This document shows positions 814 to 62,664 of a stretch of DNA of 64,000 nt, piece after piece. The stretch is taken from positions 2,825,509 through 2,889,508 of the forward strand of contig OY969586.1 of assembly GCA_963701305.1 (NCBI GenBank), in the 5' to 3' direction. The DNA comes from Candidatus Aminicenantes bacterium (GTDB taxonomy: Bacteria; Acidobacteriota; Aminicenantia; Aminicenantales; CAVYOD01). A program made the translations under genes and the position numbers. Position 1 is the first letter of the stretch. Every line of letters starts with the position of its first letter. Under the pieces are notes generated by a model. That model saw nothing but the letters and a program-made list of their open reading frames with translations, was not told where the DNA came from and made no database searches.

Positions 814-1083
814 TCACATCTTTCCCACGGCCTGGGTCGCATCGGATTCTTCATCCTCATCGGCTTCCGTCTCGATCCCGAGCAGCTTGGCGGTGCCTTC
901 ATAGATCATCTTGAAGGATTTCTTGGCCTGCTGAAGGTCAGCCAGTTTCTCTCTGACTTTTTGAAGTTCTTTTTCCACCTGTGAATCGATGCCGTCCAGT
1001 TGCCGTTTGGCTTCGTCCATGGTCTTGCGGTAAAGATCCTCTTGTTCCTTGCTTAAGGGCATCTTTAACTCCTCTTTAATCAT
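814..1083 (-). CDS. Small acidic coiled-coil protein (89 aa), likely co-transcribed downstream of the receiver-TonB gene
   Basis: ORF track. The protein is heptad-like and K/E/Q-rich (EKELQKVREKLADLQQAKK) with an acidic tail. There is a 13-nt gap to the upstream gene on the same strand. Confidence 0.4.
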   Translation of the reverse strand: MIKEELKMPLSKEQEDLYRKTMDEAKRQLDGIDSQVEKELQKVREKLADLQQAKKSFKMIYEGTAKLLGIETEADEDEESDATQAVGKM

Positions 1084-1096
1084 GTTTAATCATGCG

Positions 1097-2959
1097 TTAT
1101 TTTTTTGGCGTCTTGAATGTTATCGAGAGGGGCTTCCAGACTCTTACGTTGACTCCGTCTTTCGTGGCGGGCTTGAATTTCCATCTCCGGACGGCCGCTT
1201 CCGTGGCTTTTTCGAGCCCGTAGCCCTTGACCTGACTATTGAGGGTCACGATCTGCAGAACATCTCCATTCTCGGAGATAAGAGCATTGACGGTCACGGT
1301 CCCCTGAATCTCCCTTTGGAAAGCCAGGGGAGGGTAGACGGGGTCGATCATTTTGAGCACTTGAGGAGGAGTGGCCGTTTGCTCGAGAGGCACCAGGTCT
1401 CCCAATTTTGTTACGGCCGGCTTCGCCGCCGTGTCGGCCGCGGGCTCTTCTCCGGCTGGCTTTTCGGCGCCGGAGTTCAGTTGTTGCTCTCCACCATTTT
1501 CCTTTGGCTGGTTTTCCCCTGTCTGCGTCCCCGCCGGAAAATCAGCCGGCTTTTGGCTTGTCATCTGAGTTTGGAAATTGGGAATCGAGGCCGGAAGGAG
1601 AGGCTCGATTTTATCATCCGTCGCTTCACCGGCGCCGACATTCTGGACAATTTTTTTGGCAGGAGGTATCTTCTGTGGATTATCTTTTTGGGGCTTAGGC
1701 TTCTCGGCCACAACAGTTGGGTTGTCTTGAGCCTGCTGATCGAGCCCCGTATTCTGGATGTCGGCGGTCTGCAAAGCGGTCTGCTCCACAGGAGGCGGAG
1801 AGGCATGTTTGTGCGGCCTGAAGATGACGAAGACCGATCCGACGACCACCAGGACGGCCAGTCCGAAAATCATGACCCGTGGAGGAGGTTGATTCTTTTT
1901 CTTCTCTGCGTACCTGTCGTAGGGACTTGTCTGGGATAGACGCTTTTCGGAAACAGAACCAACTTCCAAGCGGGGCTCTTGAGGCGTCGGCTTCGTTGCC
2001 TCTTTGGGCTCCGGCTTATGTTCAGATTTGCGTCCTGGCTCGATCCCTGGCTGCTGCTTGTGCTCCTGCTTCTTGGGTTCGACCTTGAGCTCCCCCATGA
2101 GCGCTTCCGGCTCGGGTCTCCGTTCTTGGCGCTCGGGATTAGCCTTTTTCTTTTGTTCTGGCACGGCCAAGGCGGGGATTTGGTCCCAGGCCTCATCGTT
2201 CCTATTGGTTGGCTTTGAAGGGGCCACAGCAGCGGTCTTTTTCTTTTCCGGTTTCAAGCCGAATTCGGCCAGAGTATTTTTGAGCATGTTGTCAATCTCA
2301 GGGCTGGCCCCCTGTTTTTTTATTCTTTTTTCCTTTTCTTTCGGCTTTATGGTCAGAGTGCCGAAGGCTTCTTTCAATTCTTCGTCAATAAGGTCATCCA
2401 ACTTTTTTTTCCGGCCGTCTTCAGGTTTGGACGTCGCCTGAAAAGCCTTCAGACTCTGTTGCGAGAGAATTTCTAGCTTGTCGACGGGCTGAGGTGCCTT
2501 TGAGAGCTCGATTTCTTTTTCGGGACCCCGGAGATTCAAGAGCTCCAGGATTGTCGAGAGAAGCTCCTCTTTTTTGACCGGTTTGGGAAAGAACGCCGAG
2601 GCACCGCAAGAACGGAGGGCCTCGGTCTTTGACAGGGAATCCCTGTAGACACCGCTGACAATGATGACCGGGACTTTTGTGGGAAAAGCCGTCGTGATCT
2701 TTGTGCAGAGGTCAAAGCCGTCGAGCCGGGGAAGCATGGCTTCGAGGATGACGAGATGGGGATTCTCGGCCAGGAACATCTCCAGGCCGGCAAGCCCGTC
2801 GTTCGAGGTTACGATCTTGAAGCCTTCGGCCTCGAGGAATCTGGAAAGGGAATGGAGGGATTCCTTGTCAAAATCGATGATCAGAAGCTTCTTGTTCCTC
2901 ATTCTAGAGATTTTTCTACCTTCGAGGTATGTTATTTCATCCGGGAGACTAAAGGTCAA
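1097..2959 (-). CDS. Response-regulator receiver domain fused to a TonB C-terminal domain through a long K/E/P-rich linker and one TM helix
   Basis: The N-terminus is a CheY-like REC domain (LLIIDFD...LVILEAMLPRLDGFDL...IIVSG). Next comes a roughly 230-aa low-complexity linker (KKKLDDLIDEELKE, PEPKEATKPTPQEP), then a TM segment (VMIFGLAVLVVVGSVFVIF), then a proline-rich spacer. The C-terminus is a TonB_C domain (MIDPVYPPLAFQREIQGTVTVNALISENGDV...VRRWKFKPATKDGVNVRVW). Confidence 0.75.
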   Translation of the reverse strand: MTFSLPDEITYLEGRKISRMRNKKLLIIDFDKESLHSLSRFLEAEGFKIVTSNDGLAGLEMFLAENPHLVILEAMLPRLDGFDLCTKITTAFPTKVPVIIVSGVYRDSLSKTEALRSCGASAFFPKPVKKEELLSTILELLNLRGPEKEIELSKAPQPVDKLEILSQQSLKAFQATSKPEDGRKKKLDDLIDEELKEAFGTLTIKPKEKEKRIKKQGASPEIDNMLKNTLAEFGLKPEKKKTAAVAPSKPTNRNDEAWDQIPALAVPEQKKKANPERQERRPEPEALMGELKVEPKKQEHKQQPGIEPGRKSEHKPEPKEATKPTPQEPRLEVGSVSEKRLSQTSPYDRYAEKKKNQPPPRVMIFGLAVLVVVGSVFVIFRPHKHASPPPVEQTALQTADIQNTGLDQQAQDNPTVVAEKPKPQKDNPQKIPPAKKIVQNVGAGEATDDKIEPLLPASIPNFQTQMTSQKPADFPAGTQTGENQPKENGGEQQLNSGAEKPAGEEPAADTAAKPAVTKLGDLVPLEQTATPPQVLKMIDPVYPPLAFQREIQGTVTVNALISENGDVLQIVTLNSQVKGYGLEKATEAAVRRWKFKPATKDGVNVRVWKPLSITFKTPKK

Positions 2960-3065: not shown

Positions 3066-3094
3066 TTGACAGGAAAGGTGCGTTCCGGTATGAT
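3066..3094 (+). promoter_or_regulatory. Sigma70-like promoter TTGACA-17-TATGAT upstream of the BNR gene
   Basis: The -35 element ttgaca, a 17-nt spacer ggaaaggtgcgttccgg and the -10 element tatgat lie about 40 nt upstream of the ATG at 3135. An RBS ggaatgaaggggaaag precedes the start. Confidence 0.4.
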
Positions 3095-3134: not shown

Positions 3135-5105
3135 ATGAAAACAACAAAGGAAAAAACCCTGACCGCGCTGTGTTTATCGGTTTTTTTTGCTTTGGGGGGA
3201 CTGGCTCCCGCCGACATATCAGCCCAGGGGGCGACCTGGTCCTCTGTGGGGCCCGACGGCGGGAATGTCGCCGGTCTCGTGTCCATCAGTTCGTCCAGTT
3301 TTCTTGAGCTCTACGCCGTGGTCAAGAGTTTCCCGGCCCAGGTTTTCAAATCGACCAGCGGCGGCTCAACCTGGACGAGGATCGCCACCATCCAGGATAC
3401 AATCTACGACCTGAAAAACGCCCCCTCGAGTCCGAACACGTTCTATGCCCTGGCCAAAGGGGCCGTCTACAAGTCGCTCAACAAGGGTCTGACCTGGACC
3501 CGTCACAACCTGCCCAGCAACTGTTTTGGGGACAAGGGGCAGCTGGCTATCCAGCCGACGACTCCGAACTTTCTCTATGTCGCGAGCTACCGCCTGTACG
3601 ATGTCGCCAACAACAAAACCTGCATCGCCGTCCTCAAGTCCACCAATGGCGGCCAGACCTGGTCCTTTAGGACGCTGGCCCAGACCGGGAGCAATTCGGG
3701 CTTTGCGTCTTGCCTGGCGCTCAGCAAGCTCAATGCCAATCTCGTCTTCACCGGCGGCGTTTTCAATGACGCCTCGGGCGACCATTTCCGCATCTATAAA
3801 AGCACGGACGGGGGTATCAACTATTTGAACAAAACCGGAACGATCAATACGCTTCCGCTGTCGATCGTAACCCATCCCGCAGATATGAACAGAGCCTTGG
3901 TCGGCACGGCCGTGGGAATCTATCGGACCACGAACGGCGGAGACGCCTGGCTGAAAAACAACGGATCCGCTTTTGCTTTTTCGCTCGCCCTCGACAACGT
4001 CAACTCCCAGGTGGTCTATGGGGGATATGATAAGGAGATTTACAAGAGCACCAACGGCGGAGCCGACTGGACAAAGTACGTCGGGCTCCTGGGGGTCTGC
4101 ACGGATCTTCTGGCGAATTCCAGCACCGTCTATTTTGCCTCGACGGCCGGGGTCTTTAAGAGTTCAACCGGCGGGACTTCTTGGGCCGGTGCGATCGGCG
4201 GCATGAAAGCCGCGGAGATCCCGGGAGTGGCCGTCGCCTTCAGCTCTTCCAACATTGTCTACGCCGGAGTCAAAAACAACGGTATCTTTAGATCGATCGA
4301 CTCGGGAACGAGTTGGACGCGGACACCCCTTTTCCCCGGTGCAGACGCCATCACCAGGATCGCTGTCAATCAGGGCAATCCCAGCCTGCTCTATGCCCTT
4401 GCTTCCGTCCCAGGGCCTAATCTGGTTTATGAGTCTAATGACGGCGGCGACAATTGGATGGTCATCCTGACCGATTTTTGCCAGGATATGGCGGTCAGCA
4501 GGCTCAATTTTGCCAGGCTCTTCTTGGCCGGGCAGAAGCTCGTCGGGAGCAATTTCTTCCTGGCTCTCCACAAATCCACGGACAGAGGCGTCACCTGGTC
4601 CCATATCCAGATTTCGGCGACCGCGGGAACCAGCGGCAACGCCGTGGCCGTGCAACCATCGAATGACAACGTTATCCTTGTCGGAGGCCAGCTCGCGACC
4701 GGCGGAATTCTATACAAGTCGACGAACGGCGGCAGTTCCTGGGTTCGTATCACCGGGACGATCAAGGGCATCGTGCGAGCCATCACTTTCGACCCCAATT
4801 CCGTCAGCCGGATTTATGTCGGGGCCGACGACGGGTTCTACAAGAGTGAGAACGGAGGATCTTCCTGGACTCGCAAGCTGAACAGAGGGATCCGGTGCAT
4901 CCAGGTCAACCCGTTGACGCCGAATGTCGTTTTTGCCGGAGGTCCGGAGGGTGTTTTCAAGAGCTCCGATTCCGGAAACACCTGGAAAGATTTTAACCAG
5001 ACGATCCCGGCCAGAACGGTTTATGGGATGGACATCGATGGCGCGCACAGAATCCTCTACGCCGCCACGATTGGAGGAAGCGTCTGCATCAGAGCCCTCT
5101 TTTAG
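3135..5105 (+). CDS. Secreted BNR/Asp-box repeat protein (Ycf48/sortilin-like beta-propeller, glycosyl-hydrolase-like)
   Basis: There is a signal peptide (MKTTKEKTLTALCLSVFFALGGLAPADISAQG). At least ten S-x-D/N-G-G-x-x-W Asp-box motifs are present (STNGGQTW, STDGG, TTNGGDAW, STNGGADW, SIDSGTSW, SNDGGDNW, STDRGVTW, STNGGSSW, SENGGSSW, SDSGNTW). Confidence 0.8.
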   Translation: MKTTKEKTLTALCLSVFFALGGLAPADISAQGATWSSVGPDGGNVAGLVSISSSSFLELYAVVKSFPAQVFKSTSGGSTWTRIATIQDTIYDLKNAPSSPNTFYALAKGAVYKSLNKGLTWTRHNLPSNCFGDKGQLAIQPTTPNFLYVASYRLYDVANNKTCIAVLKSTNGGQTWSFRTLAQTGSNSGFASCLALSKLNANLVFTGGVFNDASGDHFRIYKSTDGGINYLNKTGTINTLPLSIVTHPADMNRALVGTAVGIYRTTNGGDAWLKNNGSAFAFSLALDNVNSQVVYGGYDKEIYKSTNGGADWTKYVGLLGVCTDLLANSSTVYFASTAGVFKSSTGGTSWAGAIGGMKAAEIPGVAVAFSSSNIVYAGVKNNGIFRSIDSGTSWTRTPLFPGADAITRIAVNQGNPSLLYALASVPGPNLVYESNDGGDNWMVILTDFCQDMAVSRLNFARLFLAGQKLVGSNFFLALHKSTDRGVTWSHIQISATAGTSGNAVAVQPSNDNVILVGGQLATGGILYKSTNGGSSWVRITGTIKGIVRAITFDPNSVSRIYVGADDGFYKSENGGSSWTRKLNRGIRCIQVNPLTPNVVFAGGPEGVFKSSDSGNTWKDFNQTIPARTVYGMDIDGAHRILYAATIGGSVCIRALF

Positions 5106-7440: not shown

Positions 7441-10400
7441 TTATTTTGTCAGGATATTGGAGATCTGTTTCTCCTTGAGCAGATTATTAAAGGCCGAAAT
7501 ATCTTTGGCTACGAGCTCGCTCAGTTTGTTTTCTGCGCCCGCCAACTCTCTCTTCAGTTCTTCATGAACGGCGACCATTTGATCTGTTGGTGGGAAATCG
7601 GCCGAGCCCCCGGCGATGTCCCCGGCCAGGACGGAAAGTTGGCCATAAAGGTTAAGGGGAACCCGGAAAGACTTCTCATCCCCTTCGGCAAGAACATGAT
7701 GAAAATACAAGTCCTCGACAGCCAAAAGTTTGGCATCGAGCTCATCGGCGCCTTTGATGATCTCAGGAGATCCCTTACTCTCTGTCAATAACTCCTTGAG
7801 GTCGGCGATCTGCTTCCTCATCCATTCAATCCGGTTGATCGAATCCACGACGGTGTTCAGATTATCCCTGACTTCGAGCGCCCTTTTAACCTGAGCTTGG
7901 ATATCCGCTTCGCTCCCGGTTGAATTCGGGTCTTTCTTTACGACGACCTTCTGACTCAGTTCCTCGCCTCCCGCTGATAATTTCACAGTGTAAGTTCCTG
8001 GGACGGCCAGAGGTCCTGCGGAGCCTCCCTCGATTCCCCAGGCAACGAGCGGAATCCAGCCCTCGCGGACCGAATCCTTGAACCTCCTCTCTTCCCAAAC
8101 GTGAGGATTTCCGGCCGGCTTAGTCCTGAGCTTAGCCCGGTGCGGGCCTTCGTATCTTAAGTCCCACCAGATCCGGTTGATCCCAGCCTTGGCTGGTCCG
8201 GTCAGGGTCCGGAGCGCCTTTCCGTCTGCATCAGTGACGGTGACCTTGGCCCCATCTTTCGACTCCGATTTGAGATAATAATTGAGCGAGGCTCCATAGG
8301 GAGGATTCGTCCCGGCGCACAGGTCGTTCGGCGCACTCTGAATCCCCGTCACATTTCTAAAGCGGTAGGCCGGCCGCGGCTCGAAGAAGTGGGCCGGAGC
8401 GCTCAAGGCATCGGAGTTAAGTTGCTGTAGCGGCGAAATATCGTCCATAATCCAGAAGCCGCGGCCATAGGTGGCAACGACGAGATCGCCAAAATTCTTC
8501 TGGACGACCATCCAATGGACGGGCGCGTGGGGCATGTTTGTCTGGAGGGGAACCCAGTTTCCGCCGTCGTTCCAGGAAATGTAGAGCCCATTTTCTGTTC
8601 CCGCATAGAGCAATCCTTTTTGCTTCGGGTCCTCGCGGACACAGTGGACATAGCTAAAGACGCTCTTGGGAATTGCCGAGCTGATCAGCTTCCAGGTTTG
8701 CCCATAGTCTTCGGTCTTATAAATGAAGGGATCCCGATTGTTCACTTGATGCAGGTCAAAGGTGACGTAGCAGATTCCGGCATCATACCTCGAAGGCTCG
8801 ATGTTGCTCACCGTTCCCCATTTGGGCAAGCCGAGGATGTTGTTCGTCGTATTGGACCAGTGGGCCCCGCCATCCTTCGTCAGGTGCAGTTGCCCGTCGT
8901 TTGTGCCGGCCCAGATCAGACCGGGGGTGACAGGGGACTCGGCGATCGCAAAAACTAGGCATCCGTATTCGACGCCGAGGTTGTCATAGGTCAGGCCTCC
9001 CGAATCCCCCAGCTTGGCCGGGTCGTTGGTTGACAGGTCGGGGCTTATGACCTCCCAGCTCTGCCCGCCGTTAGTGGTCATGTGGACATATTGGCTCCCG
9101 ACGTAGACCCGGTTGTGGTCGTGAGGGGATATGGCGATCGGGAAGGTCCAGTTGAATCGATACTTCAGAAGGTTGGCCGGCGTTCCCATCGTCGACTTCG
9201 GCCAAACACGCACCGACCGGTTCTGGCGCGTTCTCAGGTCCCAGCGGTCGAGGCCCGCATCATAGCATCCTCCCCAGACGATGTTGGGGTCGACCGGATC
9301 GGGAATGGCGAACCCGCACTCGCACCCGGAAACATACGTCCACAAGCCCGACGGAATCCCGCCTCCCCACCAGCCCATGCCCATGAGGCTGTTGCTCGGG
9401 CCGCGGTAGGATTCGCCATCCTGCCTGTTCCCGTATACAAAATAGGGAATCTGGTTATCGACCTCGACATGGTACATCTGGGCCACAGGCAGCACGACCT
9501 CGGCCCACTCCCGGCCGTGGGTGACTGAAATCCAGAGCCCGATGTCGTTAGCTATGGTTATGCGGTCGGCATTCTTCGGATCGATCCACATGTCGTGGTT
9601 GTCGCCGCCCCAGGGAACGAGCGTGTTCGTCTCGCCACCGTCCAGGGTTAGGCTCATCGAATTCGATGGGAAATAGACCTCGTTTTCGTCGACAGGTGAG
9701 ATGACCAGGCGCGTGTAATAATGGGGACGCTCGTTGAGAAGCCGGCTGGAATTGACCAGCTTCCATTCCTCGCCGCCGTCATCAGACCTCCAGAGCGAAC
9801 CGCGCTGGCCGGTCTCAATCAGCGCGTAGACGCGCCTGGAATTGCTTTGGGCGACGGCCACTGCGATCTTGCCGAGCGGGGAATCCGGCAGGCCGTGTCC
9901 GGTAAGACGTTTCCAGGAGATTCCGCCGTCGCGGGAGACGAAGACTCCGCTTCCCGGCCCTCCGCTCCACCTTCCCCAGGTCTTGATGTCCAACTGCCAC
10001 ATCCCGGCGAAAAGGATTCTCGGATTATTGGGATCGATGGCAATATCTGAGCAGCCTGTGTTCTCATCGACGAAGAGGACCTGCTGCCAGGTCTTTCCTC
10101 CATCGGCGGTCCGGTAGATGCCGCGCTCGTTCTGGGGACCGTAGCCGTGTCCCATCGCGGCCACGAAAACTATGTCCGAGTTAAGAGGGTCGACGAGAAT
10201 TCGTCCCACCCGGCCGCTTTTCTCCAGTCCCATGTGCTTCCACGTTTTTCCGGCGTCTTCGGATTTGTAAACTCCGTTTCCGATTGAGACGTTACTTCGG
10301 ATGAAGGTTTCGCCTGTGCCGGCCCAGATGACGTTCGGATCCGAGGGGGCGATGGCCAGAGAGCCGATGGATTGGGCAGGCTGGTCGTCAAAGACAGGCT

Positions 10401-10683
10401 TCCAGTTGATTCCCCCATCGGTGGATTTCCAGACTCCGCCCGAAGCGGCCCCGGCGTAGTAGACACGAAGATCTCCCGGAACGCCGACGATAGCAATCAT
10501 CCGGTTCCCTTGGGGGCCGATGTGGCGAAACCTGAGTTGGCCAAAATAGGCCGGGTCGATCTCGGGTCCGCCGGACAGGGCGGGGGCCTTTTGTTTTTGT
10601 GGCTGAAAACCACTGAAAAGAAAAACGGCAGCCAAAGCCATAAGCCCAAGTGCGGCTTTCCAGCCGTCCTTATTTATGGACAT
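7441..10683 (-). CDS. Large secreted BNR/sortilin(VPS10)-like beta-propeller protein with a C-terminal helical domain
   Basis: The ORF is 7441..10737. The likely true start is M19 (MSINKDGWKAALGLMALAAVFLFSG signal peptide) with RBS gggaggagg upstream. Many Asp-boxes are present (KSTDGGINW, KSEDAGKTW, RTADGGKTW, VSRDGGISW, RSDDGGEEW, TTNGGQSW, LTKDGGAHW, KTEDYGQTW, SWNDGGNW). The C-terminal roughly 230 aa are predicted coiled and helical. Confidence 0.8.
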   Translation of the reverse strand: MSINKDGWKAALGLMALAAVFLFSGFQPQKQKAPALSGGPEIDPAYFGQLRFRHIGPQGNRMIAIVGVPGDLRVYYAGAASGGVWKSTDGGINWKPVFDDQPAQSIGSLAIAPSDPNVIWAGTGETFIRSNVSIGNGVYKSEDAGKTWKHMGLEKSGRVGRILVDPLNSDIVFVAAMGHGYGPQNERGIYRTADGGKTWQQVLFVDENTGCSDIAIDPNNPRILFAGMWQLDIKTWGRWSGGPGSGVFVSRDGGISWKRLTGHGLPDSPLGKIAVAVAQSNSRRVYALIETGQRGSLWRSDDGGEEWKLVNSSRLLNERPHYYTRLVISPVDENEVYFPSNSMSLTLDGGETNTLVPWGGDNHDMWIDPKNADRITIANDIGLWISVTHGREWAEVVLPVAQMYHVEVDNQIPYFVYGNRQDGESYRGPSNSLMGMGWWGGGIPSGLWTYVSGCECGFAIPDPVDPNIVWGGCYDAGLDRWDLRTRQNRSVRVWPKSTMGTPANLLKYRFNWTFPIAISPHDHNRVYVGSQYVHMTTNGGQSWEVISPDLSTNDPAKLGDSGGLTYDNLGVEYGCLVFAIAESPVTPGLIWAGTNDGQLHLTKDGGAHWSNTTNNILGLPKWGTVSNIEPSRYDAGICYVTFDLHQVNNRDPFIYKTEDYGQTWKLISSAIPKSVFSYVHCVREDPKQKGLLYAGTENGLYISWNDGGNWVPLQTNMPHAPVHWMVVQKNFGDLVVATYGRGFWIMDDISPLQQLNSDALSAPAHFFEPRPAYRFRNVTGIQSAPNDLCAGTNPPYGASLNYYLKSESKDGAKVTVTDADGKALRTLTGPAKAGINRIWWDLRYEGPHRAKLRTKPAGNPHVWEERRFKDSVREGWIPLVAWGIEGGSAGPLAVPGTYTVKLSAGGEELSQKVVVKKDPNSTGSEADIQAQVKRALEVRDNLNTVVDSINRIEWMRKQIADLKELLTESKGSPEIIKGADELDAKLLAVEDLYFHHVLAEGDEKSFRVPLNLYGQLSVLAGDIAGGSADFPPTDQMVAVHEELKRELAGAENKLSELVAKDISAFNNLLKEKQISNILTK

Positions 10684-11016
10684 TCTCGCGCCTCCTCCCG
10701 ATTTTATAACCGCCTGGATTTGACAATCTTCTCTCATTCAATCTTGTGATGTCAAATCCAGAGGAACGGGGGACGGACCGACGATTTGCTCGGGCTGATC
10801 TCCGCCTCATGATCGCTACAGCCCTTCTCAAAGCCCATCCTCCACCATCACATGATTGGAAACGCTTCACTCGTAAATTCACTTGTTTGGTGCTCTTGAA
10901 TGATACGTGGTAAAATAAAATAGGGTTGTCAGAGGACGAGATGGGTTGACCCCAAAGCTGATTCAGGGACAAAGCTTACGTCCAATTTTGGATCGGCATA
11001 GAAGGGAGAAAGCAAT

Positions 11017-24291: not shown

Positions 24292-24903
24292 ATGGGGAAG
24301 CACGCCGCTGCGAGCCTGGAAATTGACATCAGCCATAAAATGCCTTATAAGACTCGTAAATCAATGAAGGAGAGCAACCTCGCCGCGGCCGACCTCGAGC
24401 TCGTTTTGCGGAAATTCTCAAACTCAATTAGGTCCAGCGTCTTGAAATTCGGCTTGGAGAAGAGGGGCATTGATCCCGAGGACATCATTCAGGAAGTCCG
24501 GATCAAAATATGGAAGAAATTCGTCAATGAGAAAAAAGTCAATAACCATTCGTCTTATATTAATAGAATTGTAAATTCCACCTTAATAGACTGCATTCGA
24601 AGATCGAGACGGCAAGAGAGGCTCATCTGGCATGCGCAACAACGCGCTCTTCTTCAAGAGGGATGCTGTCAAGAGCCTGGGTCTGAAGACAACCTCTTCA
24701 GAGAGACGATCACCAAAGCCACGGATACGCTCCTGGAATCACGCCGGACGGTTGTCAAGATGTTTCTGTCGGACATGAACATCGAAGAAATTTCTCTTGC
24801 TTTGAAATGGAGCCAAGACAAGACCAGGAACCTGCTTTACAGGGGTCTGGCTGATCTCAAGAGCAGGCTTCTGGAAATGGGGATCGAATATGAACATCGA
24901 TGA
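24292..24903 (+). CDS. ECF-family RNA polymerase sigma factor (sigma-70 regions 2 and 4)
   Basis: Region 2 is DIIQEVRIKIWKKF...YINRIVNSTLIDCIRRSRRQ. Region 4 is RRTVVKMFLSDMNIEEISLALKWSQDKTRNLLYRGLADLKSRL. There is an unusual insert between the two regions (QEGCCQEPGSEDN). The true start may be an internal Met (MPYKTRK or MKESNL). Confidence 0.8.
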   Translation: MGKHAAASLEIDISHKMPYKTRKSMKESNLAAADLELVLRKFSNSIRSSVLKFGLEKRGIDPEDIIQEVRIKIWKKFVNEKKVNNHSSYINRIVNSTLIDCIRRSRRQERLIWHAQQRALLQEGCCQEPGSEDNLFRETITKATDTLLESRRTVVKMFLSDMNIEEISLALKWSQDKTRNLLYRGLADLKSRLLEMGIEYEHR

Positions 24904-25624
24904 TCAGATACTCAGAGCGATTTACCAGGGTCGTGATGAGGCAAAAAAGCCCTCTTCCGGGAAGAGCTGTCCCTCTCCCAAAAAAATGATAAGGCTGCTG
25001 AGATCGCGGTCATCAGAAAGGGAAGCGACGAAACTCGTTGACCACATCTCCCGCTGCCGCGCTTGCGCGGGAGAGTTCGGCTTCCTGCTGGAGGCCCTCA
25101 GACATGAGGAGAAGTTGATCCAGGATCTAAGGCAATGGCTTTCCAGCAAGAATTCCGCTGAGGTCCGGGAGCCGGAGCGCCTAAGAAGTTTTGATCCCGG
25201 GATACACAGGCGGCCTTCCTTTCTCCGGTTTTCAAGGGGCACGGCCTTCTTGCTAAGCGGATTCGTCCTTGTCGGTCTGATTGTTACGGGGCTTTTGATT
25301 TTTCGGGCCCCTGAAAAATATCGGGCCGGAGCGGGATCGAAAGTTGAATTGCTCCAGCCGGTTGATGAAAAGATCTCTTCCTCCGGCTTGGTTTTCCGAT
25401 GGAAGAAGACCAAGAATTCAGAATATTACGTTCTCGAACTGTTTAACAAAGACCTCTCTCCGGTCTGGAAGAGCGAAAGGACAGCAGAAAATTCTGTCGT
25501 CCTTCCCAGAGCCGTAGCGGAAAAGCTGGAGATCAACGGCTCCTATTTCTGGATGATCACAGCCCACGGCACAAACGGGGAGGACATCACTTCACGCCTG
25601 GACGAATTCACCGTCAAGAAGTGA
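24890..25624 (+). CDS. ZAS-type (HxxxCxxC zinc) anti-sigma factor with one TM helix and a periplasmic C-terminal domain
   Basis: The gene overlaps the sigma gene by 14 nt. The zinc motif is HISRCRACAGEF, the TM segment is AFLLSGFVLVGLIVTGLLIF, and about 110 aa follow it. Confidence 0.7.
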   Translation: MNIDDQILRAIYQGRDEAKKPSSGKSCPSPKKMIRLLRSRSSEREATKLVDHISRCRACAGEFGFLLEALRHEEKLIQDLRQWLSSKNSAEVREPERLRSFDPGIHRRPSFLRFSRGTAFLLSGFVLVGLIVTGLLIFRAPEKYRAGAGSKVELLQPVDEKISSSGLVFRWKKTKNSEYYVLELFNKDLSPVWKSERTAENSVVLPRAVAEKLEINGSYFWMITAHGTNGEDITSRLDEFTVKK

Positions 25625-25659: not shown

Positions 25660-28560
25660 TCAATCGACATCCACCGTCGACGCGGGTTCGCCGTGCAGAA
25701 CAAACGCGGCCCAATAAAACGGATGGGAATACCTTGATCTGAGCATACCGAGCTTGGCCAGACGAAGGGCTTGAGCTTGGTCATTTCTTTGCGAAAGACG
25801 ATGATAAAAATCGCCCATAAACCTGGCTGTGGCTTTGTCGCTAATTTCCCAGAGGGTCGAAAGCACGGACCTGGCTCCGGAAAAGAAAAAACTCCTGGTC
25901 AAGCCCAGAATTCCTTCTCCTCGCTCATCATACCCCCTGCTGGTCTGGCAGGCTGAGAGCACAACCAGCTCGGCAGCCAATCGAAGATTGGAAATTTCGC
26001 GAACCTGCAGGAAACCATCCTCGCCTGATCTTTCATCCGAAGATAAAACGAGGGCGGACCGAAAAGGTATTTTTTCGTCGAGGAAACCGTGGCAAGCGAA
26101 ATGAATAACCTGGTAGTCCTCTAAACTAAGCTTTTTTATGGTCTCTTCGGCGGCTTCCTTCCCCAGATAGACGGACCGGTTGTTTTTCGAAAAATAGCGA
26201 GAGACATTCTTGATCTCCTGGGCGCTATGGGCGAGGGGAGAAAAGTCGAATCCTTGACCCCGATAAGTCTCTTTCATAATATTGGCCAGACTAATTTTGC
26301 CCTTCTTTCCCGACGAAACATCCGAGGCGTCTAACGCATCCCCGAAAGCTAAGAGGCCCCGAGGATACCGATTTTCCTTCTTTTTCTCCTTCAAAACCAG
26401 AAGCGATGAACAGGAAGAGCCGTAAGATACGATGTACTTTGAAATCAACAATTCCCCGCCGCAGGTTTGATCTCGGAGGAGAGGAAGCGTCTCGAAAGGG
26501 AGGCCAAACAGCGAACCGTCGGGAATGATGATCAAACGGTCGATCCCCTCAGGCAGGTTATTCAGGGCCGAAAAAAGAAGGCCGCGTGACAAGCGTTCCG
26601 CCGCCGGGGCCCCTTTCCATCTTCCTTTAGGAGGGTCGGAGAGGAGCTTCACGTAGGCGCTGATCGAATTTTCGATTTCGGTCCGCGGGGGAAGAGGGAA
26701 AATCATGAATTTGTTTCTGGCCATGGAAATAAGAAGAGAGCCGTTCTCGCCAAGGAAGTATTCGAGGATTGCGGTTTTCTCATCCAGGAGACGTTCCTGA
26801 ACCTGTTTCACTCGAAGGGGAAGGGGAAGGATGACGTTTGCGACGTCGGGCTCCCCGGCGCTCATTCTCGGGTCGAGCGCGAGGTATTCATCTTCAAGCC
26901 GCTTGAGCGTCCTCTGAAGCTCCACGAGCCTGCTCTGGGGCAAATCTCCTGCGGACATTTCGCGAATAACGGCGGAAATACGGCTTGATATCTCATCTTC
27001 TTTCTTCTTCAGGGACGGTTCCGAGGTGCGCCGGCTAGCTTCCCTTGGTTCGCCCAGGCTCTCTAGGAAAGACCTGGCTTTCGCCCTTTCGACGAGACGG
27101 AAGATCTCTTCTTCTTTGCCCGGAGAGACATCTTTTGCGCGAAGTCTGGACAAAAGGTCGATGGCTGACTCATAAACTCTGAATTTGTTTTTCCCAAACC
27201 CCACTTTGTAATAATCAGATGGAATTCGACTTCTCTGAAAATCAATTGTGTCCATAGAACTTTCGTAGCAAGCCATCGCCTGATCATACGCTTGGCTTTT
27301 TTCGTAACACTGTCCGAGGTGGAACAAAGGTTCCCAGAGGAGCCTGGGAGAGACTTTTTCGTCCGCGCTCTGAAGGGCCTTCCGAAAATACGTTTGCGCT
27401 TTTTCGCTATCTCCCGTCTTGAGGGAGCAATTTCCCAAATTGATGAAGATTTCTGCGAGTGCCTCGTGGGCGCCGTTTTTTTCGGCGAGCTCGTAGGCTG
27501 ATTGGAGATAACTTTTTGCCGTATGATAATAGGTCAGATCGAGGTAAGTGTTGCCGACGTTATTGAGGGCCTGTAGCTCAGCCCATGGATCTGCCTTGCT
27601 TCTGGCCGAATCGAGCGCCTCGTTGAAATAGGTCAGCGCTTGATAAAGATCCGATTTGCCGGAAAAAATAAGTCCTTTGTTTCGAAAGCCCTCGCCAAGA
27701 GCGTTGAGATCCTGCGGAAGGGAAACGGTATTTCCCAATCGCAGGTCGATTTCATGTCCCGACAACAGGTAATCTAACGACCTCTCGTAGAGGCCGAACT
27801 GAATTAAGATAAGACCTATGTTTTTTAAGCAAAAGGACTCGTATTCTTTTTTCGAGATGTTGCTGGAAAGGTCCCTCGCCTCGGAATAATTGTTGAGAGC
27901 TTTAGAGTAGTCACCAGAATTGAGATAATAATAGCCAATGTTCATTAGAGATTTGGCTTGTTCCAACCGATCGTTCGATTCTTGGGCAGCTTGAAGGGAC
28001 CGCTGATTGGCCAAGAGAAAGCCACCCAGATCGTGCCTTGCCAGATGCGTCAAGCTCAATTGGCGAAGGCATCTGACTTCGTGCTCCCGGCTTCCGATCG
28101 TTTTGGCCAATTTGACGGCCGAATCGAAATTCTCAACCGATCTGTCATATTTGCCGGCGAGACGATCCTCTTTGCCTCGAGAATAGAGCTCCCAGATCTT
28201 GATGGCCGCCTGGCATTCTTTCATCTCTCTTTTAAAATTGAGGTCCTTCGCGCGCGAAAAGGCGTCTGAGTAAAACTTCAGGGAATCTTCAGGTCGCCCG
28301 CCGGCCCAGCACAATTTTCCCAGAAGCATCGAACACTGGACTTCGTTCTTCGCGTCTTTCATGCTTCGCGCCAGCCCGAGCGCCTGATTCAGCAAATCTG
28401 AGGACTCCTGGATATTTCCCTCTCTCCACCGGGATTCGGCTGATTTGAAAACCTTGATATATTGCTCGAGGGGGCTTTCCGGCTTTCCGGCGGCCGGGTT
28501 TTGGCCGAACGAAAAATGGAGTGCAATGAGGATTTCCAAAAGGATTACCGATAACCTCAT
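25660..28560 (-). CDS. Secreted TPR-repeat plus CHAT-domain (caspase-like) protease
   Basis: This is ORF 25660..28635 with the likely start MRLSVILLEILIALHFSFGQNP (signal peptide). The N-terminal two-thirds is TPR-like (many AxxxYxxA/LG repeats). The C-terminal CHAT domain carries the His/Cys dyad (IHFACHGFLD ... VVLSACQTSRGY). Confidence 0.8.
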   Translation of the reverse strand: MRLSVILLEILIALHFSFGQNPAAGKPESPLEQYIKVFKSAESRWREGNIQESSDLLNQALGLARSMKDAKNEVQCSMLLGKLCWAGGRPEDSLKFYSDAFSRAKDLNFKREMKECQAAIKIWELYSRGKEDRLAGKYDRSVENFDSAVKLAKTIGSREHEVRCLRQLSLTHLARHDLGGFLLANQRSLQAAQESNDRLEQAKSLMNIGYYYLNSGDYSKALNNYSEARDLSSNISKKEYESFCLKNIGLILIQFGLYERSLDYLLSGHEIDLRLGNTVSLPQDLNALGEGFRNKGLIFSGKSDLYQALTYFNEALDSARSKADPWAELQALNNVGNTYLDLTYYHTAKSYLQSAYELAEKNGAHEALAEIFINLGNCSLKTGDSEKAQTYFRKALQSADEKVSPRLLWEPLFHLGQCYEKSQAYDQAMACYESSMDTIDFQRSRIPSDYYKVGFGKNKFRVYESAIDLLSRLRAKDVSPGKEEEIFRLVERAKARSFLESLGEPREASRRTSEPSLKKKEDEISSRISAVIREMSAGDLPQSRLVELQRTLKRLEDEYLALDPRMSAGEPDVANVILPLPLRVKQVQERLLDEKTAILEYFLGENGSLLISMARNKFMIFPLPPRTEIENSISAYVKLLSDPPKGRWKGAPAAERLSRGLLFSALNNLPEGIDRLIIIPDGSLFGLPFETLPLLRDQTCGGELLISKYIVSYGSSCSSLLVLKEKKKENRYPRGLLAFGDALDASDVSSGKKGKISLANIMKETYRGQGFDFSPLAHSAQEIKNVSRYFSKNNRSVYLGKEAAEETIKKLSLEDYQVIHFACHGFLDEKIPFRSALVLSSDERSGEDGFLQVREISNLRLAAELVVLSACQTSRGYDERGEGILGLTRSFFFSGARSVLSTLWEISDKATARFMGDFYHRLSQRNDQAQALRLAKLGMLRSRYSHPFYWAAFVLHGEPASTVDVD

Positions 28561-28784
28561 TCTTAGACACCGGCGCTCGGTGTTTACGCTGGGAAGGTGC
28601 TTGAAAAGGGGAACTCGTAATCTCATTGTTACCATTATACTCGAATTTTGCTCTGCAATCGTATTTCCGGCACAGATACCCAGGATGAGAAAAAAACCAG
28701 ATTTCGATCGTCTAATATTATGAGGACGGAGTGTATTTGGTTCTTTCGATGAATCGAACGACTCCTCGATTTTAGCTCCAGCAT

Positions 28785-29168
28785 ATGGAAAAAAACGAAA
28801 TTCTGATTGTCGACGATGACATCATCGCCCAAAATATGTTAAAGGCAACGTTGGCCAATGCCGGGTATTCCGTGCTCCTCGCTTCCAACGGTGAGGAAGC
28901 TCTCGAGAAAGCGAAAGAATACCACCCTAGGGTGATTATTCTTGATATCATGATGCCCGGAATCGACGGCGGGGAAGTCGCAAACACGCTCAGGAAAGAT
29001 CCCCAGACAAAAAAAATCCCAATCATATTCCTATCCACGCTCATTTCCGAAAGCGAGGAAAGGGCTGGTATCAGGGGAGGCTCGACCAGTTTTTTTTCTA
29101 AGCCGTTTTCGCGAGATAAGTTGCTCAATGAAATCGGCAGATATATACGCCGACAGAGCTCCAACTGA
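28785..29168 (+). CDS. Single-domain CheY-like response regulator receiver
   Basis: ILIVDDDIIAQNMLKATLANAGYSV...VIILDIMMPGIDGGEV...IPIIFLST. It is divergent from the CHAT gene. Confidence 0.8.
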   Translation: MEKNEILIVDDDIIAQNMLKATLANAGYSVLLASNGEEALEKAKEYHPRVIILDIMMPGIDGGEVANTLRKDPQTKKIPIIFLSTLISESEERAGIRGGSTSFFSKPFSRDKLLNEIGRYIRRQSSN

Positions 29169-37127: not shown

Positions 37128-37261
37128 CCCGTGTGCCAACAGTGTGCCAAAACCGATTGAAAAGCGCAGAAAATTACGGTTTCGGGTTGAAAGACAAAAA
37201 TAGGGTTATGCCGGGTCGAGCATGATGTAACTCTCTGATAATTAAGGAAGATAAGGGGGAG
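37128..37261. repeat. Second copy of the selC downstream flank repeat (partner of 35180..35326)
   Basis: See the feature at 35180..35326. Confidence 0.6.
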
Positions 37262-37354
37262 CGGGAAGGTATGGGAGTCGAACCCATCCGGGACTTTTGA
37301 AGGCCCCATACTGGATTTGAAGTCCAGAAGGCCCACCGGGACCTTGACCCTCCC
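37262..37354 (-). tRNA. selC: tRNA-Sec (anticodon UCA), 93 nt without an encoded CCA
   Basis: I folded it by hand from the reverse complement. The acceptor stem is 8 bp (GGGAGGGT/ACCTTCCC with one G-U). The D stem is 6 bp with a 4-nt loop (AGGTCC-CGGT-GGGCCT). The anticodon arm is CTGGA-CU-UCA-AA-TCCAG. The long variable arm is GGGGC-CTTCAAAA-GTCCC. The T arm is 5 bp (ATGGG-TTCGACT-CCCAT). The discriminator is G. The 8/5 acceptor/T geometry, the 6-bp D stem with 4-nt loop and G73 are the bacterial tRNA-Sec signature. It lies immediately downstream of selB. Confidence 0.8.
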
Positions 37355-37358
37355 GCGG

Positions 37359-39275
37359 CTATCTTAGCACATGCCGGTCTTCGATTCTCTTGGTCAGGCC
37401 GATTCTGTCGAAATATTCCAGGATGGCCTGGCCATATTTGCGCGAAATCCTGAGGCTGTCCCTCAGTTCAGCAATGGTGATGCTTTTGTGCTTTTGCAGG
37501 TGATTGAGGACGAGCGTGCGCGCCGACTCGAGCGCATCCCGGTGATAGGTTACCTTGGCCGAAAGCCGGACGAGATTTCCCCGCTGGATGAGGCTCCCGA
37601 CGATGCTTTTAAACAGGGCCGGCTTCAGGTCGAGCTGTTTCTCAACTTCTTCCTCGAGCGGGCTTTCATACCGGGTGCTCCTGTAAATTTGCTCTATCCT
37701 GTCGGCCGCCTCCTGATCTTTGGGCCTGAACTTGGCTTCGTGGCCGACAAGCCCGACTCCCGCCTCCTTCTTCAAAAGCAGATTTTTCCGGAATAAGTCC
37801 TCGAGGACGACTTTGAAAACCAGGGAATCGCTCGTCTTCAGAAGATGTGAGCGCAGGTCGGCTGCGGGCATGAAAAGACGATGCGGATAAGTCTCGAAGT
37901 ATTCGCGGGCCGCGGAAAGCAGGTTTTCGCCCAGCTTTGCATAAACATTGTGGTGGATGTACATTCCGTCTGGATCGGCCGCCAATGGAACGAGTTTTCC
38001 CTGCCCAACCAGCTTATCAATCGCCTCCTTAACATCGCTCACGTTCTTTCCGGCGCGTATGGCCACGTCTTGTGCGCTCTGGGGGCGGAATCCAGCTTTG
38101 AAAAATATCTGCTCGACAAACTCTCCCAGGCTCCCCTCGAGCTTCTTAAGTGCTTCTATGGCTAGAGGATCCTCTCTCTTGTGTTTTTCGGGCGCGCCTT
38201 CAAGAATTATCCCGCCTCCGATCGTCGTGAGCGGCGAAAACGAGCGGATAACGAAGCGGTCGCCCGGCAAAGCGACAGTCGGAGCCTCGCAGATGAATTG
38301 GGCCAATGAGGACTCTCCCGGCTGCACGGATCTTTTTTCGAGCAGCACCAGCCGGGCGATGACTTCGTCGGTCCCGATATGGAGGCGGATCCTCTCCCGG
38401 TTTCTCAGCTCCCGGCCGTAGCTCTTGAGGAGGTTCAGGCGGGCATCCAACCGGATCGTGGCCAATAGAGATTTGGGAGCCGCGGCGACCTGGCCCCGAC
38501 GGAGAAGCTCTTTATTTATATCCTGGAGGTTGATCGCGGTGCGCTTCCCAAGACCGGAATATTCTTCCTTTTCATTGTGGACCTGGATGCCTCGGACTCG
38601 GACTTCGAGACTCTCCGGATAGATTTCGAGGGCGTCTCCCACCCTGACCTCCCCGGAGAGAATGGTCCCGGCGATGACGGTGCCGAATCCACGGATAGAG
38701 AAAATCCGGTCGATAGGCATCCGAAAGACGCCGCTATCCGCCCGTTTTTTGATTCGCCGGCCGAGAGCGATGAGCTCAGCCTTGATTTCATTGATTCCCT
38801 GGCGGCTCACCGAGGATACCGGGACAATCGGCGCGCCCTCGAGAAATGTTCCCCTGACGAGATCTTTAATCTTAAAGGTCAGCTCGAGTATCTGATCCTG
38901 GTTCACCAAGTCCGCCTTTGTCAGCGCGACGATTCCGAGATTGACTCCCAGGAGCTGCAGGATATCGAAATGCTCGCGGGTCTGGACGCAGATCCCTTCG
39001 TCTGCCGCGATGACCAGCATGACGGCGTCTATGGAGCTGGCGCCGGCGGCCATCGTCTTGATGAATTTTTCGTGGCCGGGGACATCGATGAAAACAATCT
39101 GTTTCTCGTAGTCCGGGGCCTCTAAGAAGACAAACCCCAGCTCGATCGTCAGGCCGCGCTCTTTTTCCTCGGGGAGGGTGTCAGGATCGATCCCGGTCAA
39201 GGCCTTGACGAGCGAGGACTTGCCGTGGTCAATGTGTCCCGCCGTCCCGACGATGACGTGTTCTTTTCCTGACAT
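37359..39275 (-). CDS. selB: Selenocysteine-specific elongation factor SelB
   Basis: The GTPase motifs are [19 protein letters not shown] and TKADL. Domains II and III are followed by a long C-terminal winged-helix extension (638 aa). It sits between selD and selC. Confidence 0.9.
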
Positions 39276-39294
39276 GGCTTTTCGGCCGGCGGGT

Positions 39295-40485
39295 TTATTT
39301 TTTGAGCCTGATTTTGCCTTTGGATTTTGCCGTGATTCTGCCCACGACGGCCGCCCGCCCGACGCCGCGTCTCAGCAACTCTCTTAGCAGGGCTTTCGAC
39401 TTTTTCTCTTCGATGGCCATGAGAAGCCCGCCCGAGGTCTGTGGGTCATAAAGGATCGTTTCCATGTCGTCGCTGACGTCTTTCGCCCTCTGGATGAACT
39501 GGGCCGAATACTCACGGTTACGTTCTATCGCGCCCGAAATAAGTCCTTCCCTCACCAATTCGAGTACTCCCGCAAAGAGGGGGATATTGCCCGCCTGGAC
39601 CTCTGCCGTAACGCCGCTCTGGCAGACGATCTCACTCAGGTGTCCGGCGAGCCCGAAGCCTGTTACGTCCGTAGCCGTGCGGACGCCCATTTTGACCATG
39701 ACCTCTGCGGCGGCCTTGTTGAGCTCGGTCATGGATCGTTCGGCTTCGCGCAATCCCTCCTCCGGCGCCCTGCACAGTTGCCGGGCAAAGCTCAATATCC
39801 CGGTCCCGATAGGCTTGGTCAAGACGAGGAGGTCTCCGGGTTTGGCCGTATCATTGGTGATAATCCGGGCTGGATTGATGGTCCCCGTGACGGCAAAACC
39901 AAACTTGATCTCTTTGTCCTTGATGCTGTGGCCACCGAGCAAGGCTACCCCCGCTTCTTTCAGCTTATCGATCCCGCCTTGGAGCATCTTGTTCATGATG
40001 CGGTGGCTCAGCTTTTCGATCGGAAAGGCGATGATGGAGAGGGCGGTGAGCGGTTTCCCGCCCATCGCGTAGATGTCGCTCACGGAATTGGCGGCGGCGA
40101 TCTGGCCGAATATATAGGGGTCGTCGACGACCGGGGTGAAGACGTCGACCGACTGGACGAGGGCCATCCGGCTCGAGATCTTGAAGACTCCGGCATCGTC
40201 GCAGGTGCTGGCGCTCACCAGGACCCGGGGATCAAAAATCTCGGGGAGACCGGCCAGGGCTTTTTTCAGGTCTTCCTGGCTGATCTTGGAAGCGCAGCCG
40301 GCGTTCTCGACCAGCCCGGTCAGATGGACTTCTTCGACGGCCTCTTCTTCCCGTTCCCCGGAGCAGAGGCAGATATTTTTCTGTTTGAAGAGGTCGCATG
40401 GGCAGGGCTCTTTGGGGTTGCAGATGCAGTGACCGAGCTTGATCGAGCGGCCCATGATGCGCTTGCGCTTCTGGTAATCGATCAT
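39295..40485 (-). CDS. selD: Selenophosphate synthetase SelD (Cys-type) with an N-terminal Cys-rich extension of about 45 aa
   Basis: The PurM-like core has the active-site [10 protein letters not shown] (aligns to E. coli GAGCGCKIS), DDAGV and AMGGKP. The N-terminal extension is [23 protein letters not shown]. Confidence 0.85.
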
Positions 40486-40500
40486 CGTCCGATTCCCTCT

Positions 40501-61769: not shown

Positions 61770-62186
61770 TCACCAAAGATTCCTGAGTCCCAAGAATGAC
61801 TGAAAGACATAGAGGGACAGGATGCAGATTCCCAGGATGAAATGGGGTGTGCGCAGCGGAGAAGCGGGGCCCTTAATCTTCCTGGATATGAGGTAGGTGC
61901 TGACCAGCAGAACAACGATGCTCAGTCCGGTAAAGAGATGGAGGGGGAACTCGAAAAGCCTGCCTGTGTCGATAAGAACGAGGGCAAGGCCAGAGATGAA
62001 TCCAAACACGCCGAGTTTCATCAGCAGCGGGCCGTTCCGCCTGTGCCGTCTGACGGCGGGCATTGGAAAGGGCGCTTTTTTGCGCCTTGCCCTTCTGATC
62101 CGCAAGCCAAGCGCAGCCTGATAAAATAACAGGATCATGATCACGGCATTATATGAGCCGTGAACGTATTTAAGATACTGGAGCAT
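61770..62186 (-). CDS. Hypothetical membrane protein with 3-4 TM segments
   Basis: Its hydrophobic segments are VIMILLFYQAALGL, LGVFGFISGLALVLI, LSIVVLLVSTYLI and FILGICILSLYVF. It is directly downstream of the cupredoxin gene on the same strand. Confidence 0.45.
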   Translation of the reverse strand: MLQYLKYVHGSYNAVIMILLFYQAALGLRIRRARRKKAPFPMPAVRRHRRNGPLLMKLGVFGFISGLALVLIDTGRLFEFPLHLFTGLSIVVLLVSTYLISRKIKGPASPLRTPHFILGICILSLYVFQSFLGLRNLW

Positions 62187-62222
62187 CTTTTGAGCCCCAA
62201 GGCGCTTCGTCGTCCGCTGAGT

Positions 62223-62633
62223 CTACTCCACGACCTCAAGGATGCCGTGCATACCGCGGTCCGTGTGGCTCTTGGAAAAGGGCGCCTTCTTGGTGCACTT
62301 AAAAGGATATTTCCCGGCTTTCGTGGGTGTGAATTTGATCGTCTTCGGTTCTTTCCCCAGGGATTCGGAGAAGTCGACCCCCGCTTCGGGAGCTTTGAGA
62401 ACAATATTGTGCGGAGTGGAGCCTTCTTTCTTCACTTTGAGCTCCACCGGGACGTTCACCTTGACGACAATGACATTCGGGTCGAAATAGTAGCTCCCGC
62501 CGGTGATCTCCACTCGCTGGACGCCATCCGAATCGACAGAGGCGACAAGCCTCTTTTCAGTCCACTCTTGCGCCCAAACCAAGGAAGCGACGAGGAGTAC
62601 GAATATAGCGGCAAGCGTCTTAATGTATTTCAT
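62223..62633 (-). CDS. Secreted cupredoxin (type-1 blue copper) domain protein
   Basis: A signal peptide, then the candidate ligand set H(NIVL)...C(TKK)...H(TDRG)M(HG), giving a His-Cys-His-Met spacing. Confidence 0.6.
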   Translation of the reverse strand: MKYIKTLAAIFVLLVASLVWAQEWTEKRLVASVDSDGVQRVEITGGSYYFDPNVIVVKVNVPVELKVKKEGSTPHNIVLKAPEAGVDFSESLGKEPKTIKFTPTKAGKYPFKCTKKAPFSKSHTDRGMHGILEVVE

Positions 62634-62664
62634 GATACTCTCCTTTTGCCAATTATTTATATTT

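Follow-up and report, generated by a model that had tools for sequence, protein, structure and literature searches.

TonB proteins are well known as energy transducers. They couple to ExbB/ExbD through the transmembrane (TM) helix and through periplasmic contacts, and within the TM helix of Escherichia coli TonB this coupling requires the His of an SxxxH motif. As a rule, TonB proteins have no cytoplasmic domain (PMC8262864), and TonB-like bitopic proteins with cytosolic regulatory or interaction modules and roles beyond nutrient uptake have been described, i.e., GltJ/GltG of the Myxococcus Agl-Glt gliding system (PMC11135422) and SjdR of Anabaena (PMC8262864). As for receiver domains, those that are aspartate-less have most often exchanged the Asp for Glu, which can imitate phosphorylation, though it does not always do so (PMC4395418, PMC12632262). 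A pseudo-receiver is defined as a domain that is recognised as a receiver but is devoid of the residues needed for phosphotransfer, and the mode of action of the bacterial ones is largely a mystery (PMC12632262). Here we analyse a 64-kb window (the whole stretch of 64,000 nucleotides, positions 2,825,509 to 2,889,508 of contig OY969586.1, assembly GCA_963701305.1) from a Candidatus Aminicenantes bacterium. At one end of it, a two-gene operon encodes a large protein with a receiver-like head and a TonB C-terminal domain, followed by a small coiled-coil partner (Table 1).

The large gene lies in a minus-strand open reading frame (ORF) that runs uninterrupted over 620 codons (1097..2959) and begins at a TTG codon (2959). 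Its first ATG is codon 20 (window position 2902), giving a product of 601 amino acids (aa). This is the likely start, and the same product is the one called in public assemblies: the identical 601-aa protein (P0001) is found in an NCBI genome contig of 4.07 Mb and in ENA. A preliminary description of this DNA had proposed a single protein of 620 aa, of which the single frame stands and the length does not. It had also described a receiver domain, a K/E/P-rich linker, one TM helix, a proline-rich spacer and a TonB C-terminal domain, and this architecture and the membrane topology were right. The linker, given then as 230 aa, has 217 (K 17%, E 14%, P 12%), the spacer has 142 (P 13%, A 13%, Q 11%), and RVMIFGLAVLVVVGSVFVIFRP is the sole strongly hydrophobic segment. 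The product is a bitopic inner-membrane protein with N-in topology. An AlphaFold2 model, made with an input of eight homologues, showed a receiver fold with a predicted local distance difference test (pLDDT) score of 60-86, two linker helices (aa 169-179 and 201-212), the TM helix and a TonB_C domain with pLDDT ~90, the remainder being disordered.

The N-terminal domain matches receivers in both sequence and fold. It matched Pfam Response_reg with 62.3 bits (cut-off 30.2), passing the threshold that the preliminary description had set as a test. Many NCBIfam response-regulator models also matched, in the receiver part only, its sequence or fold matches in the PDB included 3eq2, 1mvo and 1nxo, and Foldseek matched it to ordinary receivers such as PhoP, YycF and Spo0F. 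However, the phospho-site has been lost. The diagnostic residues are D10-F11-D12, E54, S83 and K107. Glu54 aligned with the phospho-acceptor Asp at the end of beta-3 of the solved receivers RssB, PhoP and RR02 ('vilE' in the query, 'vicD' in RssB, 'vlDvmlP' in PhoP). Phe11 aligned with the second metal-binding acidic residue ('iiDFD' against 'iiDDD' in RssB), so that the Mg2+-binding acidic pair after beta-1 is incomplete, and Phe or Tyr is found at this second position in most family members. Ser83 (the conserved Thr/Ser of beta-4) and Lys107 (the conserved Lys of beta-5) are retained. The "usual acidic pocket" of the preliminary description is thus absent (Glu54 and Phe11 where the canonical reading is DDD/D), while the conserved Lys that it mentioned is present.

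This pattern is not a peculiarity of one sequence. We built a hidden Markov model (HMM) from the family receivers and used it to align all matches in 52 loci and in the window. All family receivers in these loci read D[FY][DE] / E / [TS] / K, whereas unrelated receivers in the same DNA, aligned with the same HMM, read DDD / D, including a stand-alone receiver of the window (28785..29168). The Glu signature was found in 21 of 21 full-length loci. It also occurs in about 125 of the 139 receivers present among the 151 best cluster representatives of the profile search described below, only three of these 139 having Asp at the phospho-site. One distant, kinase-bearing relative (P0009) also has Asp there. 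Given that Glu54 and Phe11 are near-invariant in the family, the domain is, as judged from its sequence, a pseudo-receiver, i.e., a REC fold without the residues needed for phosphotransfer. With the acidic pocket absent, the basis for His-Asp phospho-regulation is gone. In addition, a Pfam scan of ~45 larger ORFs of the window revealed no histidine kinase (HisKA/HATPase_c). The phospho-regulated energy transducer that the preliminary description had proposed is not supported: there is no phosphorylatable Asp, one metal-binding Asp is lost, the window contains no histidine kinase and the TM helix is devoid of the His motif.

In an Anaeromyxobacter metagenome-assembled genome (MAG) we also saw a different Glu-type pseudo-receiver located between an MshEN domain and TPR repeats (locus L044, 2213..3706, plus strand). 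Evidently, Glu-locked receivers are also built into other architectures beyond Aminicenantes.

The small gene begins 34 nucleotides (nt) after the stop codon of the large one, and a Shine-Dalgarno sequence, AAAGAGGAG, precedes its ATG (1062) at about 1069..1077. A small coiled-coil gene had been noticed here before; its presence was confirmed, and its length was not, since the real start at ATG 1062 gives 82 aa instead of 89. It is co-transcribed with the large gene, the two forming a two-gene operon, for which the minus-strand promoter scan found no sigma-70-like promoter. The pairing is strict. A check on the conservation of the small gene, suggested by the preliminary description, showed that in each of the 21 loci the next gene downstream, in the same orientation, is a homologue. 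The partners of the window and of locus L001 were 68% identical, against 40% for the large proteins (best local alignment). The homologues of the partner form at least 132 clusters at 90% identity, and the members listed were all of 75-104 aa, almost all without a Pfam family and a few with weak precomputed matches. The names given to them at JGI (ElaB/YqjD, FlaC, PspA, ZnuA and others) are mutually inconsistent and look like coiled-coil artefacts, and our own searches of the partner against Pfam and NCBIfam returned sub-threshold coiled-coil noise only. AlphaFold2, with an input of 43 homologues, predicted one continuous helix of 57 residues (aa 5-61, pLDDT >90) and a disordered acidic tail. 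A heptad pattern of hydrophobic positions can be followed by eye along the helix. Compared with PDB chains, the partner had no sequence match of natural origin, the only matches being designed repeat proteins.

The operon belongs to a sizeable family. An independent 13-kb Logan contig carries the identical large protein with the same neighbours (a thioredoxin-like gene, a BNR propeller, an 89-codon ORF and LysE), and the composition does not change abruptly along the gene. One homologue (ENA) is 88% identical and several are 33-52% identical, all with full-length coverage. A word-indexed search gave eight true homologues amid generic receivers, and the family size was taken from a profile search over 1.84 billion cluster representatives. 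This search gave 634 clusters (50% identity) at E<=1e-30; of the best 151 of these, 139 had the receiver and 123 had both domains. A locus scan restricted to one genome per species gave 51 related loci, 20 of which, like the window, carry both domains in one colinear ORF. Most of the family loci are Candidatus Aminicenantes MAGs, and the operon, which is common in Candidatus Aminicenantes (Acidobacteriota), is mostly restricted to them. When neighbouring genes were clustered over the 21 loci, only housekeeping synteny appeared (GH38, URO-D, RlmN, GFO/IDH, LysE), and neither ExbB/ExbD, MotA/TolQ nor a histidine kinase was among the neighbours conserved across them.

Some other features of these loci deserve mention. 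Many of the family loci come from records of 'uncultured Eubacteriales', which look mislabelled. Close to the large gene of the window there are two genes for BNR/sortilin-type beta-propeller proteins (3135..5105, plus strand, and 7441..10737, minus strand), the first of them divergent from the large gene and with a near-consensus sigma-70-like promoter at 3066..3094.

The architecture has sisters in which other modules are added or removed. Eight of the relatives above 860 aa in length were scanned, and all of them consist of pseudo-receiver, Pkinase, TM helix and TonB_C, as do P0009 and P0016, whose kinase domains have the VAIK, HRD and DFG motifs intact. The kinase forms are directly followed by a homologue of the small protein, of 79-80 aa, and in one of them (P0161; locus L055, 251..5096) this gene is followed by accD and by a folC-like gene of the Mur-ligase family. 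There are also stand-alone pseudo-receiver paralogues in Aminicenantes, of ~160 aa and ~48% identical, with an acidic and then basic tail. They are located directly upstream of accD in at least ten loci (L023-L036; for example L025, 2670..4059), and in L026 (7965..9913) a homologue of the small protein lies between the stand-alone pseudo-receiver and accD. Together with the gene order in the locus of P0161, this suggests pseudo-receiver / partner / accD as the ancestral arrangement. Two MAGs have both the TonB and the stand-alone form (L009/L027 and L017/L029). The partner accompanies the TonB, the kinase and the stand-alone forms, and therefore tracks the pseudo-receiver and not TonB_C. Pseudo-receiver and coiled-coil protein are the constant pair, the kinase and the TM-TonB_C part being variable additions. 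TonB_C occupies, in the kinase-bearing sisters, the place of a receptor-kinase ectodomain, which suggests a use in periplasmic docking or sensing in the family.

The linker is poorly conserved. The sole conserved features of its cytoplasmic sequence are EIDNMLKNTLAEFGL, a short motif with lysines after it, and Y-x-x-Y-x-E next to the membrane, in which Tyr at position 328 and Glu at position 333 are each shared by 95% of 21 aligned sequences. A stretch similar to motif B (Table 1) was also seen in the kinase-bearing relatives P0009 and P0016.

At the other end of the protein, the TonB C-terminal domain is bona fide, as the preliminary description had it. It matched Pfam TonB_C with 60.7 bits (cut-off 24.6) and NCBIfam tonB_Cterm with 46.6 bits (cut-off 27.1), and its PDB sequence matches were TonB proteins only, not TolA (matches by sequence or fold: 2k9k, 6fip, 6i97 and 1u07). 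Foldseek gave a target TM-score of 0.86 and a root-mean-square deviation of 1.8 Å to the C-terminal domain of Pseudomonas aeruginosa TonB bound to FoxA (6i97_D), and a TM-score of 0.82 to E. coli TonB (1u07). A YP motif, the Trp in RRW and a Phe at the end presumably align to those of E. coli TonB, the PDB matches supporting this alignment. The periplasmic spacer ranges from 136 to 181 aa in the family and is long enough for crossing the periplasm.

The evidence for coupling to a motor is less favourable. The TM helix contains neither His nor Asn, either in the window protein or in 117 of 123 two-domain relatives, and its mean pairwise BLOSUM62 score was 1.5, against 2.7-2.8 for the two domains. 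It had been noted before that no exbB or exbD is adjacent, and this was borne out more widely, Pfam finding no MotA_ExbB, ExbD or TolQ/TolR-type protein among the ~45 larger ORFs of the window. The accompanying premise, that ExbB/ExbD engage TonB at a cytoplasmic stub, is inaccurate in the light of established knowledge, since the contacts are those of the TM helix and the periplasm. Taken at sequence level, the missing SxxxH, the weak TM conservation and the absence of nearby motor genes weaken the case for canonical ExbBD energy coupling.

A group of small minus-strand ORFs at 61770..63983, by size similar to exbD, exbD and exbB, turned out to be DUF4079, a cupredoxin, an unknown ORF and an AIR-synthase-like gene. 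The window also contains, 44 kb away from the operon, a gene similar to those of TonB-dependent transporters (TBDT; 46711..49458, plus strand) with CarboxypepD_reg, Plug and barrel, a candidate TonB-box partner. In two of the related loci, genes for secreted or lipoprotein-like products with two tandem TonB_C-like domains and no TonB-type TM anchor (L009, 6046..7338, and L017, 11210..12424, both minus strand) are found at a distance of a few kb from the gene for the pseudo-receiver-TonB_C protein. In L040 (11620..12948, plus strand) another secreted or lipoprotein-like product has a TonB_C-like domain and then an apparent peptidase M23 region.

When the protein is compared with the described systems, each of its parts is familiar and the combination is not. 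With the TonB proteins of E. coli, P. aeruginosa and Vibrio anguillarum (TonB2) it shares the sequence and fold of the C-terminal domain, including the YP motif and the Trp/Phe core, the Pro-rich periplasmic spacer and the single N-in TM anchor. However, 341 aa precede the TM helix instead of a short stub, this helix is devoid of SxxxH, and no exbBD genes are nearby. TolA was ruled out, the PDB sequence matches being all TonB and the spacer being disordered and not helical like domain II. With aspartate-less receivers such as ChxR and the plant pseudo-response regulators it shares the REC fold, Glu at the Asp position, the loss of the second acidic residue and the retention of T/S and K (PMC4395418, PMC12632262). 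The bacterial examples in these two reviews (ChxR, RitR) are soluble regulators, whereas the one described here forms the cytoplasmic head of a membrane-spanning envelope protein and comes with its own coiled-coil partner. GltJ has ZnR, GYF and an MglA-binding linker, whereas only Response_reg and TonB_C were detected here. Without ZnR or GYF, and with unrelated housekeeping genes instead of Agl/Glt genes as neighbours, an identity with GltJ/GltG was ruled out. The TonB-like domain of SjdR is truncated and that of the window protein is complete. RomR-RomX (bioRxiv 10.1101/2024.02.20.581209) has in common with our pair a receiver, then a disordered Pro-rich region, and a small all-helical partner. 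RomX folds as a three-helix bundle and binds to the receiver of RomR (bioRxiv 10.1101/2024.02.20.581209), and RomR is soluble and keeps its Asp, whereas the window protein is membrane-anchored and has Glu54. A RomX-like partner was ruled out, the model being a single helix and the PDB matches being designed repeat proteins only. Finally, the kinase-bearing sisters resemble receptor-type Ser/Thr kinases such as PASTA kinases in that a kinase in the cytoplasm is joined by one TM helix to an extracytoplasmic binding domain, with the difference that their ectodomain is TonB_C; the window protein has no kinase domain. No publication on a fusion of TonB_C with a receiver or with a kinase came up in literature searches. 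The family is real, sizeable and uncharacterised, a novel combination of known parts, and what is new is the strict pairing with the small coiled-coil gene, the Ser/Thr-kinase sisters and the stand-alone pseudo-receiver paralogues, the partner occurring with all three forms.

With about even confidence, we infer that the large protein is an envelope-spanning adaptor, tether or signalling protein that is independent of His-Asp phosphotransfer. Its TonB_C domain would dock by beta-strand pairing, its target being either the TonB box of a barrel in the outer membrane or the wall, and would act as a periplasmic tether or sensor. The pseudo-receiver, putatively Glu-locked in one conformation, would form a cytoplasmic interaction module with the coiled-coil partner, and the protein would link the state of the outer envelope to a cytoplasmic partner, probably without canonical ExbBD coupling. 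Several points weigh against this. The missing SxxxH is no more than suggestive, as canonical TonBs of this phylum may or may not keep the motif. A canonical and strongly conserved TonB_C (pLDDT ~90, YP and Trp kept) fits a working TonB equally well, and exbBD could be located elsewhere in the ~4-Mb genome. Contact between pseudo-receiver and partner and a TonB-box target are both putative, suggested by gene linkage and analogy. Glu at the Asp position is not always phosphomimetic (PMC12632262). A possible, if doubtful, alternative is a working TonB paralogue energised by the proton-motive force through an ExbB/ExbD (or TolQR/AglRQS-like) motor encoded elsewhere, in which pseudo-receiver, linker and partner would localise or gate transduction by protein contacts, in the manner of GltJ and without Asp phosphorylation. 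The PDB sequence matches to TonB only, the likeness to the C-terminal domain bound to the TonB box of FoxA, a Pro-rich spacer that can cross the periplasm, the TBDT-like gene of the window and the precedents with cytosolic regulatory regions, GltJ (PMC11135422) and SjdR (PMC8262864), all agree with it. However, the His/Asn of SxxxH is missing from the weakly conserved TM helix in 117 of 123 members, motor genes are absent from both the window and the conserved neighbourhood, and the kinase-bearing sisters resemble receptors, not transducers.

The sisters allow two further readings. In one of them, that we regard as rather unlikely, signalling would run from outside to inside: the TonB_C ectodomain would sense TonB boxes exposed by ligand-loaded transporters and report inward to the module of pseudo-receiver and partner, a Ser/Thr kinase being added in the sisters. 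If true, FecA-FecR-FecI cell-surface signalling would have a counterpart here that works through a kinase or an adaptor, and TonB_C domains would have been recruited as receptor ectodomains across a whole bacterial class. In the other, improbable in our view, the window protein would be a substrate or adaptor of the receptor kinases of the pseudo-receiver-Pkinase-TM-TonB_C type, with Ser/Thr phosphorylation of the linker or the pseudo-receiver and not at the Asp site. The sisters with motif-complete Ser/Thr kinases have the same frame of pseudo-receiver, linker motif, TM helix and TonB_C, and the coiled-coil partner is common to the kinase forms. There is also the case of plant pseudo-response regulators that have Glu at the Asp site and are regulated by phosphorylation elsewhere in the protein (PMC12632262). 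However, the window has no kinase gene. A TonB gated by a cognate histidine kinase, which would control outer-membrane transport through His-Asp phosphotransfer, could call on the Response_reg match, on the switch residues S83 and K107 and on the few distant relatives with Asp at the site (P0009 and the three of 139), but the sequence contradicts it, with Glu54 for the phospho-acceptor and Phe11 for the metal ligand near-invariant in the family and no histidine kinase in 64 kb, and we consider it very improbable. Least credible of all is an artefact, i.e., an assembly chimera or a frameshift fusing a response regulator gene to tonB, which the preliminary description had considered and for which only the unusual architecture speaks. 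It can be taken as refuted by the identical 601-aa product and neighbours of the independent Logan assembly, the 88% identical ENA homologue, the 20 colinear full-length orthologue loci, the 123 two-domain representatives and the lack of a compositional break.

Table 1. Features of the pseudo-receiver/TonB_C operon (coordinates are those of the window).
Feature	Coordinates	Strand	Remarks
Large gene	1097..2902	-	601 aa; predicted pseudo-receiver / TM / TonB_C; stop codon 1097..1099
Predicted cytoplasmic pseudo-receiver, aa 1-124	2531..2902	-	Response_reg match, PDB alignments, family columns, AlphaFold2, Foldseek
Glu54 codon	2741..2743	-	At the phospho-acceptor Asp position; PDB alignments and family columns
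Cytoplasmic linker, aa 125-341	1880..2530	-	Disordered, K/E/P-rich; composition, pLDDT <50, low conservation
Linker helix A	2357..2410	-	KKKLDDLIDEELKEAFGT; short, predicted amphipathic; AlphaFold2 helix 169-179, alignment
Linker motif B	2237..2311	-	SPEIDNMLKNTLAEFGLKPEKKK; conserved, amphipathic helix then basic patch; alignment, AlphaFold2
Juxtamembrane motif	1889..1921	-	Y-x-x-Y-x-E then basic cluster, cytoplasmic; conservation in alignment
Single TM helix, aa 342-363	1814..1879	-	Without His/Asn, hence without SxxxH; moderate conservation
Periplasmic spacer, aa 364-505	1388..1813	-	Disordered, Pro/Ala/Gln-rich; composition, AlphaFold2
TonB C-terminal domain, aa 506-601	1100..1387	-	Periplasmic; YP motif, conserved Trp and Phe
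Partner gene	814..1062	-	82 aa; ATG 1062; one long coiled-coil helix (aa 5-61) and acidic tail

The rest of the window contains several other gene groups. The stand-alone receiver at 28785..29168, with canonical DDD/D/K, is the only true receiver found in it and is divergent from a gene for a large protein with TPR and CHAT (caspase-like) domains (minus strand; both within 25660..29168). Shortly before, at 24292..25624 (plus strand), an extracytoplasmic function (ECF)-type sigma factor gene (Sigma70_r2) overlaps by 14 nt a 244-aa ORF without a Pfam match, which is possibly its anti-sigma factor. There is a complete cluster for selenocysteine insertion on the minus strand (37261..41907), with selA (40501..41907), a selD-like gene of the AIR-synthase family (39295..40485), selB (37359..39275) and tRNA-Sec (37261..37354). 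Two genes of the MTTB family (trimethylamine methyltransferase-like; 44425..45846, plus strand, and 51622..53061, minus strand) lie within 8 kb of each other; between them are the TBDT-like gene and genes for a short-chain dehydrogenase and an X-Pro dipeptidyl peptidase.

In this family, a predicted pseudo-receiver and TonB_C are joined in one polypeptide, which makes it a natural system for what a Glu-locked receiver does, and a test case for TonB_C as envelope sensor or tether versus transducer. The labels 'response regulator' and 'TonB family protein' are unsafe for these proteins, and it is equally unsafe to deduce a capacity for iron or nutrient uptake from them in metagenomes of Aminicenantes.

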